Virus record (IMG/VR): IMGVR_UViG_2870490042_000002
Source: a virus
Lineage: Duplodnaviria > Heunggongvirae > Uroviricota > Caudoviricetes
DNA length: 36,250 bases
Direction: 5' to 3' (one strand)
Part shown: in pieces, positions 30,414 to 36,250 of the stretch
Position numbering within the stretch: the first letter of the stretch is position 1
Layout of the letters: each line of letters opens with the position of its first letter
The notes under the pieces: model-generated
What the model was told of the DNA's origin: nothing
Databases searched by the model: none
The model's input: the letters and a program-made list of their open reading frames with translations, nothing else
Position numbers and translations under genes: made by a program

Positions 30414-31573
30414 TAACGGGAATGACTATTCAGGCCGGGGCGCGCATTGCTCCTGATTTTATGCTCACGCTCGGTGGCGCAGATATCACACAGAATTTCA
30501 GCGACCGGCTTATCGGGCTGACCATGACCGACAATCGCGGATTCGAGGCTGACCAGCTTGATATCGAGCTCGATGATACCGATGGACTGGTCGAGCTGCC
30601 GCCGCGCGGGGCATCGCTGACCCTGTGGCTGGGCTGGCAGGGCTCGGCGCTGATTAACAAAGGGAGTTTTACGGTTGACGAAATCGAGCACCGGGGCGCG
30701 CCTGACAGGCTGACTATCCGGGGACGCAGTGCGGATTTTCGCGGGACGCTGAACTCGCGCCGCGAGCAGTCATGGCACGACACCACGCTCGGGGTGATTG
30801 TCGAGACTATCGCGCAGCGTAACAAACTGACGGCCAGCGTGGCTGATACCCTGAAAGCTGTTGCTGTGCCGCATATTGACCAGTCTCAGGAATCCGACGC
30901 GGCGTTTTTGTCCCGACTGGCGGATCGCAACGGGGCAACGGTTTCGGTCAAGGCCGGGAAATTGTTATTCCTGAAAGCCGGTAGCGCGATGACGGCCAGT
31001 GGTAAGGCCATCCCGCAAATGACCGTCGAACGCGGCGACGGCGACCGGCATCAGTTTGCCATAGCCGACCGCGAGGCATACTCCGGCGTAACCGCTAAAT
31101 GGCTGCACACCAGAGACCCGAAACCGCAAAAGCAAAAGGTGAAGCTCAAGCGCAAACCCAAAGAGCAGCACCTGCGTGCGCTGCAGCACCCGAAGGTTGC
31201 TAAAACATCGGCAAAGGCTAAAAAGAAGAAGGTGCAGGAAGCGCGGGAAGGTGAGTATATGGCCGGTGAGTCCGACAATGTTCTGGAACTCACGACCATC
31301 TACGCGACAAAGGCGCAGGCCATGCGCGCAGCTCAGGCAAAGTGGGACAGGATACAGCGTGGGGTGGCGGAGTTTTCGATCACGCTCGCCACTGGCCGCG
31401 CTGATTTATTTCCTGAAACGCCGGTGGCAGTGAAAGGCTTTAAGCGCGTTATAGACGAGCAGGCGTGGATAATCAGTCGTGTGGTACACAGCCTCAACGG
31501 GAGCGGCTTCACGACGGGCTTAGAGCTTGAGGTTAAGGTTTCTGATGTGGAGTATGAAAGCGAGGAAGTTTAA
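30410..31573 (+). CDS. D: Tail protein D (387 aa)
   Basis: 387 aa, same as P2 D. Overlaps the U stop. Confidence 0.9.
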   Translation: MITGMTIQAGARIAPDFMLTLGGADITQNFSDRLIGLTMTDNRGFEADQLDIELDDTDGLVELPPRGASLTLWLGWQGSALINKGSFTVDEIEHRGAPDRLTIRGRSADFRGTLNSRREQSWHDTTLGVIVETIAQRNKLTASVADTLKAVAVPHIDQSQESDAAFLSRLADRNGATVSVKAGKLLFLKAGSAMTASGKAIPQMTVERGDGDRHQFAIADREAYSGVTAKWLHTRDPKPQKQKVKLKRKPKEQHLRALQHPKVAKTSAKAKKKKVQEAREGEYMAGESDNVLELTTIYATKAQAMRAAQAKWDRIQRGVAEFSITLATGRADLFPETPVAVKGFKRVIDEQAWIISRVVHSLNGSGFTTGLELEVKVSDVEYESEEV

Positions 31574-31653
31574 CGGCGTGTGTTGTTTATGTGTTTGTTT
31601 TATAAGTAAAAATTAGTAAAATTAACACATTGAATACGCCGGAGACCCTCATC

Positions 31654-31875
31654 ATGTTTCATTGTCCGAAATGCCATCATGCCGCCCACGCCCGCACGAG
31701 TCGCTATTTTACTGATACCACAAAAGAGCGGTATCACCAGTGCACAAACATTAACTGCAGCTGCACGTTTGTGACCACTGAAACAGTCGAGCGTTTTATC
31801 GTGTCGCCGGGGGAAGTAGTACCCGCGCCGCCGCATCCGACATCATCAGGTCAGCAACAAATTCACTGGATGTGA
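31654..31875 (+). CDS. ogr: Late gene transcriptional activator Ogr (zinc finger), 73 aa
   Basis: ORF 31630..31875 trimmed to MFHCPKCHHAAHARTSRYFTDTTKERYHQCTNINCSCTF. Cys-x2-Cys...Cys-x4-Cys zinc finger as in P2 Ogr. Confidence 0.85.
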   Translation: MFHCPKCHHAAHARTSRYFTDTTKERYHQCTNINCSCTFVTTETVERFIVSPGEVVPAPPHPTSSGQQQIHWM

Positions 31876-31942
31876 CAAACGAGAAAGCCCCGCGATGTAC
31901 TGCACCCATTTTGTTGGACGATGAAATGGAATAGCCCCTAAT

Positions 31943-32464
31943 ATGTCAAAGCCAAAATACCCTTTTGAAAAGCGCCTTGAAGTCGTGAATCACTACTTCA
32001 CAACTGATGATGGTTACAGGATCATCTCGGCACGTTTTGGTGTCCCCCGAACCCAGGTCAGGACATGGGTTGCCCTCTATGAAAAACATGGAGAAAAAGG
32101 TTTAATTCCCAAACCTAAAGGCGTTAGTGCTGATCCAGAGTTGCGTATTAAGGTCGTGAAAGCTGTGATCGAGCAGCACATGTCCCTTAATCAGGCTGCT
32201 GCTCACTTTATGCTTGCTGGTAGTGGTTCTGTAGCCAGGTGGCTGAAGGTCTATGAAGAGCGCGGAGAAGCTGGTTTACGCGCGCTCAAGATTGGCACCA
32301 AAAGAAACATTGCAATATCAGTTGATCCAGAAAAAGCGGCATCAGCATTGGAGCTGTCAAAAGACCGACGCATTGAGGATCTTGAAAGGCAAGTTCGATT
32401 TCTTGAAACGCGGCTTATGTATCTAAAAAAGCTGAAAGCCTTAGCTCATCCCACGAAAAAGTGA
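31943..32464 (+). CDS. insJ: IS150 OrfA (InsJ, 173 aa, HTH)
   Basis: MSKPKYPFEKRLEVVNHYFTTDDGYRIISARFGVPRTQVRTWV. IS3-family OrfA with C-terminal leucine zipper. Confidence 0.85.
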   Translation: MSKPKYPFEKRLEVVNHYFTTDDGYRIISARFGVPRTQVRTWVALYEKHGEKGLIPKPKGVSADPELRIKVVKAVIEQHMSLNQAAAHFMLAGSGSVARWLKVYEERGEAGLRALKIGTKRNIAISVDPEKAASALELSKDRRIEDLERQVRFLETRLMYLKKLKALAHPTKK

Positions 32465-33312
32465 AAGTACTCAACGAGCTAAGGCAGTTTTATCCTCTTG
32501 ATGAGCTTCTCAGGGCTGCGGAGATACCGCGCAGTACGTTTTATTATCATCTAAAGGCTCTCAGCAAGCCTGACAAGTATGCGGACGTTAAAAAGCGTAT
32601 TAGTGAGATTTATCACGAGAATAGAGGCCGATACGGATACCGTAGGGTAACGCTGTCTCTTCATCGAGAAGGGAAACAGATTAACCATAAAGCTGTTCAG
32701 CGCCTGATGGGAACCCTCTCACTTAAAGCAGCGATTAAGGTCAAGCGATACCGCTCTTACAGAGGAGAGGTAGGGCAAACCGCCCCTAATGTTCTCCAAA
32801 GAGATTTCAAGGCTACGCGGCCAAACGAGAAGTGGGTTACCGATGTTACTGAATTTGCAGTCAATGGGCGCAAGCTGTATTTGTCTCCAGTAATAGATCT
32901 CTTCAACAACGAAGTTATTTCTTACAGCCTTTCGGAAAGACCAGTGATGAACATGGTTGAGAATATGCTCGATCAGGCATTCAAAAAGCTTAATCCTCAC
33001 GAGCATCCTGTTCTGCACTCTGACCAGGGATGGCAGTATCGTATGAGAAGATATCAAAATATCCTTAAAGAACATGGTATTAAACAAAGCATGTCCAGAA
33101 AAGGCAATTGTCTGGATAATGCTGTGGTGGAGTGTTTCTTTGGAACCTTAAAGTCGGAGTGTTTTTATCTTGATGAGTTCAGTAATATAAGCGAACTGAA
33201 GGATGCTGTTACGGAATATATTGAATACTACAACAGCAGAAGAATTAGCCTGAAATTAAAAGGTCTGACTCCAATTGAATATCGGAATCAGACCTATATG
33301 CCTCGTGTTTAA
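32461..33312 (+). CDS. insK: IS150 OrfB (InsK, DDE transposase catalytic domain)
   Basis: 283-aa ORF in the -1 frame relative to OrfA, GTG start at 32461. IS3-family DDE transposase core. Confidence 0.85.
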
Positions 33313-33627
33313 CTGTCCAACTTTTTGGGGTCAGTACACGAATGCGGGGCTTTTTGCAACTTTTAGATCAGTTATGTTAAGTACATTTCCGTCGGCAAAG
33401 TGCCAGGAGCGGGTTCTAGAGAGTGACTAACGTTAGTTATATGTGTAAAATTCCTTAAAAATAAGAAGGATATATATCCATGACAGCAATTGCATATTGG
33501 ATTAACTGAGAATCAATTGAGAAATTTTTGGGGGGGCAAAAAATAAACTAGCTAATTAAATTTTTATAAATAACGAATATAAGACTGCAAGCCATTTAAC
33601 AAAAGTTTATAAATAAAGGAGTCAGTT

Positions 33628-34479
33628 TTGAACAATATCCCCATATCTACTCAATGGACTTTAGACGCTACGGGTGAAGTTGGACGCTCATCAGTAAATT
33701 CTGTTTATATGATTATATGTCCTGCGACCGGCTCGAAAGGATCTGGTTTTTTAATAGATAATGGGTTAATAGTAACGAACGAGCATGTTATCACTGGATG
33801 CTCTACAAATCAGATTTTCGCAATTTCAGCTTATGGACAGAAGATTCCAATTTCTCAAAAATGGATAGATTCTGATCGCGATTTAGCTGTGCTGAGACCT
33901 GCCATTACCCAGACTGGTGGGCTAAGTATTGTTAAGGATAATGATCTTAAAGTTGGTGAATCAGTAACAACTTGGGGATACCCATTAGGATACAACGGTC
34001 CTGCACCGTTACTATCCGTTGGTTATCTAGCAGGATTTAACTCATACCAAACCGCCAAGGGACAAAAAAAACATCTAGTGGTAAATGGGGCATTTAACTC
34101 AGGAAATTCTGGTGGAGCTCTTTTAAAAGCTTCAGATAATAAAGTAATAGGTATTGTAGTGAGTAAGCATGCTCCTATCAGTCAATACCATCAATCAGCT
34201 ATTGAAGCTTTGTCTGAAAATATGAGTGGCGTCACCTATACCGCTACTAATGACGCTGGAGAAACTAAAAGTTTTGTAGAATCTCAAATTGTAGCAGAAT
34301 TATTGATTCATATGAGAAGTCTAACTCAAGTTATGATTGGAGAAGCAATTGCAGCAGAGGAATTACTTTCGATGCTTAGCGAAATTGACTTGAGTCCACC
34401 ACAATCTATGTCAAGAAATGCCTTATGTCATTGCGGGAGTGGAAAACGCTTCAAAGAATGTCATGGAAAGATATCCTAG
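33628..34479 (+). CDS. Trypsin-like (S1) serine protease with C-terminal SEC-C zinc-binding motif; cargo gene
   Basis: TTG start with RBS AAGGAG 5 nt upstream. Triad candidates His in VTNEHV, Asp in DLAVL, Ser in GNSGGAL. C-terminal CHCGSGKRFKECHG. No signal peptide. AT-rich. Confidence 0.75.
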   Translation: MNNIPISTQWTLDATGEVGRSSVNSVYMIICPATGSKGSGFLIDNGLIVTNEHVITGCSTNQIFAISAYGQKIPISQKWIDSDRDLAVLRPAITQTGGLSIVKDNDLKVGESVTTWGYPLGYNGPAPLLSVGYLAGFNSYQTAKGQKKHLVVNGAFNSGNSGGALLKASDNKVIGIVVSKHAPISQYHQSAIEALSENMSGVTYTATNDAGETKSFVESQIVAELLIHMRSLTQVMIGEAIAAEELLSMLSEIDLSPPQSMSRNALCHCGSGKRFKECHGKIS

Positions 34480-34628
34480 TAAGTACTTATATCAGTCTGA
34501 TAATGGCTCTTCAAATACAAAAGACTTCACTTACTCTGCCGTCATCTCTGCTCCTCGCTTATTGCAGACGGTCAAAAGCTTACAAGCTGTTGACTAGATG
34601 TGTTCTTACATTGTCAGTTAAAACAAAA

Positions 34629-34651
34629 GCCCCGCAAATGCGGGGCTTTTT
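34629..34651 (+). terminator. Rho-independent terminator after the protease cargo gene
   Basis: GCCCCGC-aaat-GCGGGGC followed by TTTTT. Near-identical to the terminator after ogr that is split by IS150. Confidence 0.55.
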
Positions 34652-34712
34652 GTATCGATGTGGTCAATGTGTGGACATTGATAGAAATAAATCCATTTAT
34701 TTCAGTAATTTA

Positions 34713-34739
34713 CATGCAAAAAATAAGCCCGTGTAAGGG
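34713..34739. repeat. attR core (22-bp direct repeat of attL core plus ATGCA), also the 3' end of cyaR
   Basis: Exact repeat of 478-499. Preceded by TGTGGACA (34668-34675) and TATCGATGTGGTCAATG arm sequence. Confidence 0.6.
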
Positions 34740-34804
34740 AGATTACACAGGCTAAGGAGGTGGTTCCTGGTACAGCTAGCATTTTATGGGTTATGTTTTT
34801 CAGC
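34718..34804 (-). ncRNA. cyaR: CyaR (RyeE) Hfq-dependent sRNA, 87 nt
   Basis: Reverse complement reads GCUGAAAAACAUAACCCAUAAAAUGCUAGCUGUACCAGGAACCACCUCCUUAGCCUGUGUAAUCUCCCUUACACGGGCUUAUUUUUU, matching E. coli CyaR as recalled, with terminator hairpin and U-tail. Confidence 0.75.
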
Positions 34805-34888
34805 GAAACGGATGATAACCTTAATAAATGCAGCTGTATGTGATCGGTTTCTAAGAATTTTCCATCCGGGAAAAATAATCGAAATTAA

Positions 34889-36250
34889 TCACTTACCGTG
34901 TGGGTTACGCGTGGTTTCCCCGGAGAAATTACGCATCAGCAGAGCGTAATTGAGCTCAAGATCCTGCGGGACCGGGAGCCACACAGTATAACCATCGCCT
35001 GGTGCGACCGGCATCGCTTCACCTTTGGCGTTTTCCATGTGCTCAAGGGTAAAGTTAATGTTGCCTTGCGGCGTCATCAGCTCAAGGCTGTCGCCAACGG
35101 AGAATTTATTTTTCACCGCTACCGCCGCGAGGTCCCCCTTGCGCTCACCGGTAAACTCACCAACAAACTGCTGGCGGTCAGAAACTGAATAACCGTATTC
35201 GTAGTTCTGATAATCGTCGTGAGTATGACGACGCAGGAAACCTTCGGTATAGCCACGATGCGCCAGACCTTCCAGAGTTTCCAGCAGGCTGGTATCGAAC
35301 GGTTTGCCCGCAGCGGCGTCATCGATAGCTTTACGGTAAACCTGTGCGGTGCGTGCGCAATAGTAGAAAGATTTAGTACGGCCTTCGATTTTCAGCGAAT
35401 GCACGCCCATTTTGGTCAGGCGTTCTACATGGGCGATGGCGCGCAGATCTTTCGAGTTCATGATGTAAGTGCCGTGCTCATCTTCAAACGCGGTCATATA
35501 CTCGCCCGGACGCTGGGCTTCTTCGATCATAAACACTTTGTCGGTTGGCGCGCCGATACCCAGCGTCGGCTCAACATTTTGCACCGGAATCGGCTCGTAC
35601 TTGTGTACGATGTTGCCAACGTCATCTTCTTTCCCTTCCTGGACGTTGTACTCCCAGCGGCAGGCGTTGGTGCAGGTACCCTGGTTCGGATCGCGCTTGT
35701 TGATATAGCCAGAGAGCAGGCAGCGACCGGAGTAGGCCATGCACAGTGCGCCGTGAACGAAGATCTCGATCTCCATATCCGGCACCTGATTGCGGATCTC
35801 TTCAATCTCTTCCAGCGACAGCTCGCGAGAGAGGATCACGCGGGTCAGGCCCATTTGCTGCCAGAATTTCACCGTCGCCCAGTTTACGGCGTTAGCCTGC
35901 ACCGAGAGGTGGATCGGCATTTCAGGGAAGTGCTCACGCACCAGCATAATCAGCCCTGGATCGGACATAATCAGCGCATCCGGCCCCATTTCCACCACCG
36001 GTTTCAGGTCACGGATAAAGGTTTTCAGCTTGGCGTTGTGCGGTGCAATGTTGACCACGACATAAAACTTTTTCCCCAGCGCGTGGGCTTCATTGATGCC
36101 GAGCTGAAGATTTTCGTGGTTGAATTCGTTGTTGCGCACACGCAGGGAGTAACGCGGCTGGCCCGCATAAACAGCATCTGCGCCATAAGCGAAAGCGTAA
36201 CGCATATTTTTCAGCGTTCCCGCCGGGGAAAGGAGTTCCGGTTTAAACAT
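34889..36250 (-). CDS. yegQ: U32-family peptidase-like protein YegQ (tRNA hydroxylation protein), 453 aa; host gene
   Basis: Full-length ORF ending at the window edge; MFKPELLSPAGTLKNMRYAFAYGADAVYAGQPRYSLRVRNNEF. Sequence and position next to cyaR match E. coli yegQ as recalled. Confidence 0.85.
   Translation of the reverse strand: MFKPELLSPAGTLKNMRYAFAYGADAVYAGQPRYSLRVRNNEFNHENLQLGINEAHALGKKFYVVVNIAPHNAKLKTFIRDLKPVVEMGPDALIMSDPGLIMLVREHFPEMPIHLSVQANAVNWATVKFWQQMGLTRVILSRELSLEEIEEIRNQVPDMEIEIFVHGALCMAYSGRCLLSGYINKRDPNQGTCTNACRWEYNVQEGKEDDVGNIVHKYEPIPVQNVEPTLGIGAPTDKVFMIEEAQRPGEYMTAFEDEHGTYIMNSKDLRAIAHVERLTKMGVHSLKIEGRTKSFYYCARTAQVYRKAIDDAAAGKPFDTSLLETLEGLAHRGYTEGFLRRHTHDDYQNYEYGYSVSDRQQFVGEFTGERKGDLAAVAVKNKFSVGDSLELMTPQGNINFTLEHMENAKGEAMPVAPGDGYTVWLPVPQDLELNYALLMRNFSGETTRNPHGK

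Follow-up and report, generated by a model that had tools for sequence, protein, structure and literature searches.

An IS150 insertion in the ogr terminator of a P2-like prophage and a probable target preference of the element

The DNA analysed here, referred to as the window, is the whole 36,250-nt stretch of virus record IMGVR_UViG_2870490042_000002. All coordinates refer to it, and L-numbers are labels of the sequence loci with which it was compared. The window contains a P2-like (Peduoviridae) prophage, identified by a Phage_GPD and Ogr_Delta module beside the attachment site and by matching attachment (att) cores at both ends. With a copy of the insertion sequence (IS) IS150 included, the prophage is 34,267 bp long, and without it 32,821 bp. 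This copy lies behind the late-gene activator gene ogr, which is preceded by gpD, and splits the ogr terminator in two; a cargo gene for a trypsin-like peptidase follows on the same strand, starting 290 bp downstream of IS150 (Table 1). The insertion site is a preferred IS150 target and not a chance position, a point overlooked by an earlier note on this DNA.

The element is a known IS and its insertion is an ordinary event. The 1443-bp sequence is 100% identical to loci annotated as 'IS3-like element IS150 family transposase', and the published length of IS150 is 1,443 bp (PMC11101190). It starts with TGTACTGCACCC at 31896 and runs up to GGGGTCAGTACA at 33338 (TGTACTG...CAGTACA), with imperfect inverted repeats ending in 5'-TG...CA-3'. 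The transposase genes are co-directional with ogr, and orfA (frame 0) and orfB (frame -1) are predicted to be joined by programmed -1 frameshifting; in RefSeq the identical element carries the annotation 'programmed frameshift'. Full-length identity, the TG...CA ends, two open reading frames (ORFs) with the slippery heptamer, the rve and helix-turn-helix (HTH) domains and a short duplication of the 3-4 bp class all mark the copy as IS150. It is canonical and apparently active. Matches of at least 99% identity were found in 3016 records, IS150 is present in 2,864 of 5,426 complete Escherichia coli genomes, and 14 further full-length copies from other loci are identical to the one in the window. 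Near the 3' end of orfB, positions 33261-33295 form a 15-bp inverted repeat (87% complementary) that is terminator-like on the minus strand only, where it is followed by TTTAATTT, and that could block transcription entering IS150 from the right.

For the empty site, a 1000-bp query was reconstructed from 500 bp on each side of the element, with IS150 and one CGA removed. It matched about 28 complete E. coli genomes over 1000/1000 bp, and 34 at 99% identity or more. The gene order there is invariably D - ogr - trypsin-like peptidase - yegQ - yegP - baeR, at the cyaR/yegQ locus. Because this exact empty site exists, the boundaries of the element and its 3-bp duplication are established: two CGA copies flank IS150 where the empty site has one. 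The earlier note had read the element as IS150, with a length of 1443 bp and a CGA target duplication, from the letters alone; alignment to other IS150 copies and to uninterrupted ogr regions gave no differing boundaries, and all three readings hold. The span given there, 31876-33360, is likewise correct with regard to the ogr stop codon, both terminator halves and the IS. A search of the 5,426 complete E. coli genomes did not turn up the interrupted version. Since the empty site occurs in other genomes at the same locus and the IS-bearing version in none of them, the insertion is a derived, recent and private event, which agrees with the evolution after integration that had been proposed for this prophage. 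The comparison of genomes indicates that the P2-like prophage already occupied the cyaR/yegQ attachment site when IS150 arrived. The insertion left ogr, attR and the cargo coding sequence unaltered.

The intact hairpin, AAAGCCCCGC-GAAT-GCGGGGCTTTTT, starts 8 nt past the ogr TGA. With IS150 and one CGA removed, the window reads AAAGCCCCGCGAATGCGGGGCTTTTT, an 11-pair stem with a 4-nt loop. In its 60-nt context this fold has a free energy of -23.9 kcal/mol (z = -5.1, with 0 of 200 shuffles as good), and the split halves do not fold (z = +1.75 and +1.53). The reconstituted sequence is thus an intrinsic terminator, a GC-rich stem-loop with a U-tract directly 3' of the ogr stop codon, that forms only when the two parts are rejoined. 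The duplicated CGA consists of the last base of the 5' stem and two loop bases, which places the insertion at the top of the hairpin. The earlier note was therefore correct both in reconstituting a hairpin directly downstream of ogr and in placing IS150 in its loop region. A terminator at this position was also expected in related phages, and six of the seven examined (ENT4, Wphi, fiAA91-ss, SI22, Midge and SEN8) had an intrinsic one immediately after ogr. It reads GAAAGCCCCGCAAATGCGGGGCTTTTTT in ENT4 and ATAGCCCCTCAGTTGAGGGGCTTT in Wphi and fiAA91-ss; SI22, Midge and SEN8 have other GC hairpins with T-runs, the sequences varying by lineage. In the seventh relative, a Klebsiella phage, no terminator was evident behind ogr. 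By tblastn, ogr of the window is 95.9% identical to that of Enterobacter phage ENT4 and 72.6% identical to ogr of Wphi, L-413C and phage records named P2. Ogr homologues were found in 222 phage records.

Table 1. Coordinates of the features at and around the IS150 insertion
Feature	Position	Strand	Remarks
ogr, late-gene activator, 73 aa	31654..31875	+	Intact; TGA at 31873-31875; Pfam Ogr_Delta zinc finger, E = 1.7e-20
ogr terminator, 5' half, AAAGCCCCGCGA	31884..31895	+	Holds AGCCCC (31886-31891) and spacer G (31892)
Target-site duplication, left copy CGA	31893..31895	.	Single CGA in empty site (locus L001)
IS150, full length	31896..33338	+	1443 bp; 100% identity to annotated copies; boundaries fixed by exact empty site
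IS150 left inverted repeat (IRL)	31896..31926	+	31-nt arm, 71% complementary to IRR (repeat search)
IS150 orfA	31943..32464	+	173 aa, helix-turn-helix DNA-binding; Pfam HTH_28, E = 4.3e-23
Slippery heptamer A AAA AAG	32425..32431	+	Predicted -1 frameshift site fusing orfA to orfB; phase correct
IS150 orfB	32461..33312	+	DDE/integrase-core part of transposase; Pfam rve 3e-29, rve_2, HTH_21
IS150 right inverted repeat (IRR)	33308..33338	+	31-nt arm; end facing cargo gene; outward-promoter region per PMC11101190
Target-site duplication, right copy CGA	33339..33341	.	Sequence reading
ogr terminator, 3' half, ATGCGGGGCTTTTT	33342..33355	+	1446 bp away from 5' half
Cargo gene, 283-aa trypsin-like serine peptidase with C-terminal SEC-C zinc motif	33628..34479	+	Pfam Trypsin_2 1e-19, SEC-C 3.6e-07
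Second terminator, AAAAGCCCCGCAAATGCGGGGCTTTTT	34625..34651	.	-20.8 kcal/mol, z = -5.2; next intrinsic one for ogr/IS150 transcripts
attR core, AAAAAATAAGCCCGTGTAAGGGAGATT	34718..34744	+	Partner attL 478-504, 2 mismatches; 0 matches expected by chance
CyaR (RyeE) small RNA gene	34721-34806	-	Rfam CyaR_RyeE 100.7 bits; 3' end overlaps attR core

A search with the interrupted region also retrieved a different P2-like prophage, located at fieF/pfkA, in which IS150 lies directly behind ogrK. This locus was compared in NZ_CP029973 (L002, 4262-6708) and NZ_AP019189 (L003), and its junction is present in 72 complete genomes. The junctions read AGAAAGCCCCTCAG[TCG]-IS150-[TCG]AGGGGCTTTCT (the longer right flank reading AGGGGCTTTCTGTTTT). 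When the ogrK terminator is reconstituted it folds at -28.3 kcal/mol (z = -6.9), again with IS150 in its loop. The two insertions share the IS, its orientation relative to ogr, the orthologous terminator loop, a position one base from GGGGCT and a defence-like cargo gene downstream. They differ in the chromosomal site (fieF/pfkA, not cyaR/yegQ), in the duplication (TCG, not CGA), in the position, which is 3 nt further 3' in the hairpin at fieF, and in the end of the element that adjoins the motif: at fieF this is the IRR, next to [TCG]-A-GGGGCT, which is the commoner orientation, and in the window it is the IRL. The D-ogr flanks of the two prophages are clearly diverged, whereas the IS is identical. 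Gene conversion or recombination between two IS-bearing P2-like prophages was considered and rejected, as the two insertions share neither duplication nor exact position nor flanks. The two are independent IS150 events in orthologous 4-nt loops, and chance does not explain them.

To describe the target, IS150 left ends were collected from viral, genome and metagenome contigs, which gave 134 loci. Species-representative genomes contributed 7 loci and viral contigs 4 (two of them the fieF-type junction), so that the metagenomes supplied the usable sample. Directly after IS150, 17 of 29 distinct natural right flanks follow the pattern NNN-N-GRGGCY, which is expected at 1/1024 per site. The mirror pattern, [AG]GCC[CT]C-N-NNN, was seen in 2 of 56 distinct left flanks, those of the window and of L106; L106 and L117 represent one site with one duplication and opposite IS150 orientations. 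The window reads AGCCCC-G-[CGA] and so obeys the rule on the bottom strand, as the mirror of [dup]-N-GGGGCT.

As the natural sites are paralogous and possibly selected, a test set as unselected as possible was chosen: 27 de novo IS150 insertions of the long-term evolution experiment (LTEE), with positions and duplication lengths from Table S1 of PMC11708052 and DNA from REL606. The scoring covers position and spacing, regardless of the orientation of IS150 at these sites. The exact hexamer lies one base from the duplication in 8 of the 27, and at least 5/6 positions match in 15. In the same REL606 DNA the background is 0.11% for the exact hexamer and 2.0% for at least 5/6 (binomial P about 1e-16 to 1e-18). 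Three exact-motif sites (3015771, 3713694 and 3981782) lie in ordinary coding sequence with no hairpin. Two others are in terminators: after rpmA the site reads aaaAGCCCCG[CAA]cgtgttgCGGGGCTtt, with the duplication inside the stem and one base from GCCCC, and after sfsB it reads AGCCCCG[CGTA]CGGGGCT. The hairpin loop was also considered as what determines the position, and was rejected for hexamer spacing, the rpmA duplication lying within the stem. The spacer base is mostly a pyrimidine, and the target hexamer matches the inner IS150 end (GGGGTC in the IRR) at 5/6 positions. We are highly confident that this preference, in which IS150 sets its 3-4-bp duplication one (usually pyrimidine) base from GRGGCY, usually by the right end of the IS, is real.

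That it is both real and previously undescribed is a nearly even question, tilting slightly towards no. No IS150 target consensus was found in the searchable literature, in a search that did not extend to the primary IS150 papers (Schwartz 1988; Haas and Rak 2002) and from which priority is not judged. Insertion preferences of IS911 and IS150 are stated without detail in PMC10379815, a local 'insertional hotspot' of IS150 has been described (PMC11101190), and a large LTEE IS study makes no mention of a motif, preference or hotspot (PMC7881107).

Most natural metagenome copies of IS150 sit in hok/sok-type loci (L017, L029, L035, L037, L059, L065, L069, L070, L116, L117 and others). The Hok reading frame was recognised by eye in the reconstructed sites, and the REL606 annotation near two LTEE sites names mokC and hokD. 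The insertions in hok leaders, and those at REL606 16990, 1619834 and 1619926, are followed within a few bases by a GAGG Shine-Dalgarno-like sequence and an ATG. Their duplications include AAG, AAC, CCC, CCA, ACC, ACA and TTC; because these differ, many of the hits are independent. In four metagenome contigs (L055, L124, L128 and L134) the right end of IS150 is joined to its left end through 3 bp (...GGGGTCAGTACA-AGG-TGTACTGCACCC...), the junction expected of a head-to-tail tandem or an excised circle intermediate. A further nine loci (L010, L013, L024, L063, L071, L079, L093, L107 and L123) have non-matching flanks, the left of one hok-type site and the right of another, a pattern which points to deletions or inversions through IS150-mediated recombination of one copy with another. 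Exact IS150 ends were also seen on short contigs labelled Moraxella (L009, Moraxella osloensis), a Bacillota metagenome-assembled genome, Alkalicoccobacillus and Marinobacter (L009, L011, L012, L014). These are probably E. coli contamination, given that the flanks of L009 are an E. coli hok-type site.

Downstream of the insertion, the cargo gene lies between ogr and the attR core, with a G+C content of 37-39% against 51.5% for the prophage. With its Trypsin_2 domain it is indeed the protease cargo that had been described from the sequence. Its protease domain matches the PADLOC models RT-Protease_XI (7e-21), PDC-M35A, LmuA and HamA, and its tail matches E2 models; the protein may be a single-gene anti-phage effector. 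The cargo behind IS150 in the fieF prophage is a 213-aa protein with a PADLOC match to PD-T4-10_B (1.3e-34) and no Pfam match. From these gene contents the ogr-attR interval looks like a slot for defence cargo in both prophages.

Two near-identical terminators, AAAGCCCCGCGAATGCGGGGCTTTTT and AAAAGCCCCGCAAATGCGGGGCTTTTT, bracket the cargo segment of the window and differ in one loop base. ENT4 has one terminator, with a CAAAT loop, followed directly by TGTGGAC repeats, which we take to be P2 Int arm-type sites. The second terminator of the window has them behind it as well (L149). This arrangement suggests that the protease module was gained through duplication of the ogr terminator or recombination at it. 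The attachment site of the prophage is the 3' end and terminator of cyaR, regenerated by the phage core, and yegQ is next after attR and CyaR. An Rfam scan of 31400-35000 found CyaR at attR as the sole family, with none for IS150 or the ogr terminator; sub-threshold leader-like matches were due to the second terminator.

The locus as a whole is very probably best explained as a motif-guided insertion of IS150 into the ogr terminator of a resident P2-like prophage, with read-through as a plausible consequence. IS150, an IS3-family element of the copy-out/paste-in type, would have entered the Rho-independent terminator behind ogr and duplicated CGA. The terminator stem, AAAGCCCC...GGGGCTTT, bears the GRGGCY hexamer on both strands, and in so short a stem a spacing of one base from the hexamer would fall at the loop. 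Terminators with GCCCC/GGGGC stems would therefore be natural IS150 hot spots.

In P2, ogr has a promoter of its own and is also reached, late in infection, by transcription continuing out of the F-E-T-U-D operon. Because the split hairpin no longer folds, termination behind ogr is inferred to be lost. Transcripts that formerly ended there, whether begun at the ogr promoter or, in lytic growth, in the upstream late operon F-E-T-U-D, would then enter IS150 in the sense direction. A consensus scan found no plus-strand intrinsic terminator inside IS150, and none on the ogr strand before 34625-34651. The 3' end of IS150 is reported to bear an outward-facing promoter (PMC11101190), which lends literature support to the outward transcription suggested in the earlier note, a reasonable idea. 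Transcripts from this promoter, together with the read-through, could reach the trypsin-like/SEC-C cargo gene, previously insulated by the terminator. Expression of the cargo could in this way become linked with late phage transcription or with the activity of IS150.

Several points weigh against this explanation. Activation downstream of IS150 is modest and inconsistent, transcription having been gained in 12 of 55 regions downstream of new copies (PMC11101190). No consensus sigma-70 site was found at the 3' end of IS150, and promoter-like matches in the region equal shuffle expectation and are uninformative. Rho-dependent termination in the untranslated segments 31876-31942 and 33313-33627 could still stop read-through, and silencing of the AT-rich spacer could also keep it from the cargo. 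On the side of targeting, the window insertion has the rarer orientation to the motif, with the IRL adjacent. Twelve of the 27 LTEE sites score 4/6 or less, which makes the motif a preference and not a requirement. The sample of natural sites is dominated by paralogous hok/sok loci and filtered by selection, and the LTEE sites are themselves partly selected, some positions recurring between populations.

Selection may have acted on the result. The allele could have risen since the outward promoter or late read-through activates the defence-like cargo, or since late prophage functions are dampened; this concerns the persistence of the allele and is compatible with motif-guided targeting. In both P2-like prophages IS150 has the same orientation to ogr, with its 3' end towards cargo that has defence-related PADLOC matches (the trypsin-like/SEC-C protein in the window, the PD-T4-10_B-like protein at fieF). 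The outward promoter is documented (PMC11101190), and the fieF allele occurs in many genomes. Two events in the same orientation, however, have a probability of 50% by chance, the 72 fieF genomes are possibly one clone, and the reported promoter effect is modest. The window allele, found in no other complete genome, gives no sign of spread. Selected rewiring is unlikely.

A second possibility is that IS150 follows structure and no motif, recognising a cruciform or hairpin that has been extruded, or a hairpin of single-stranded DNA at the replication fork. Strong terminator hairpins hold four of the insertions (those of the window and the fieF prophage and the LTEE ones at rpmA and sfsB), many targets in hok loci are imperfect inverted repeats (GCCCC...N16-25...GRGGC), and in the IS3-family relatives IS1397 and ISKpn1 the transposase directs insertion into the loops of palindromic units (PMC1525189). 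The exact-motif LTEE insertions in hairpin-free coding sequence contradict this, and the duplications do not keep to the loop: that at rpmA is in the stem, and in hok sites they lie where a loop of 16-25 nt ends on its 3' side. What stays constant is the distance of 1 nt to GRGGCY and not the loop. Targeting by structure is rather improbable.

Much less credible is a random insertion between ogr and the cargo gene that was kept as harmless. The site is intergenic, it leaves ogr, attR and the cargo ORF intact, and IS150 is often found at motif-free places, as the low-scoring LTEE sites illustrate. Against a chance hit stand the spacing AGCCCC-G-[CGA], an exact fit to the motif of a kind found at 0.1% of positions, the independent hit that the other prophage took in its ogrK terminator, no more than 3 nt from the corresponding position, and two more de novo hits in terminators of the same type. 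An assembly artefact, a repeat-induced mis-join of the kind IS elements commonly cause and that the non-matching IS150 flanks of several metagenome contigs might suggest, is very improbable, as the 3-bp duplication is perfect, the element is full-length with intact ends, and the junctions are exact halves of a sequence uninterrupted in 34 genomes.

With motif-guided insertion as the preferred explanation, the event would take away the insulator between the late operon with ogr and the defence-like cargo, and put an IS with an outward promoter before that cargo. The locus would thus illustrate how, once lysogeny is established, the regulation of an accessory gene in a prophage can change by simple means. 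The GRGGCY rule, if true, predicts IS150 hot spots at terminators with GCCCC/GGGGC stems and in hok/sok leaders; parallel IS150 mutations in evolution experiments would then partly reflect target choice and not selection alone, and the motif could be kept out of constructs for IS150-rich hosts such as E. coli B. The added value is the preferred target, with a parallel event in a second P2-like prophage and a simple consensus, a modestly interesting by-product.

Compared with IS150 of E. coli (IS3 family, IS150 group), the element in the window is no different, and the insertion site alone is new. In experimental evolution lines identical IS150 insertions recur across independent lineages, notably by hokC, hokD, hokE and mokB, and have been read as inactivation of redundant toxin-antitoxin systems (PMC5419217). 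These hok/sok hot spots have the same [dup]-N-GRGGCY geometry as the window, but the target there is a hok leader and here a phage terminator. IS186 is likewise an E. coli IS with a target pattern of G/C runs, GGGG(N6/N7)CCCC, derived from mutation-accumulation data (PMC5009759). It differs in belonging to the IS4 family and in a palindromic pattern on both sides of the duplication, whereas IS150 has one hexamer on one side. In mode of insertion there is a resemblance to IS1397 and ISKpn1, which are also of the IS3 family, make 3-4-bp duplications and insert in the central part of short GC-rich palindromes, a specificity attributed to the transposase (PMC1525189). Their targets are repetitive extragenic palindromic (REP) units and bacterial interspersed mosaic elements (BIMEs). 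IS150, in contrast, uses a hexamer at fixed spacing: its target in the window is a phage terminator, and its other sites include non-palindromic coding sequence. IS150 thus acts partly like IS1397 and ISKpn1 and is not one of them.

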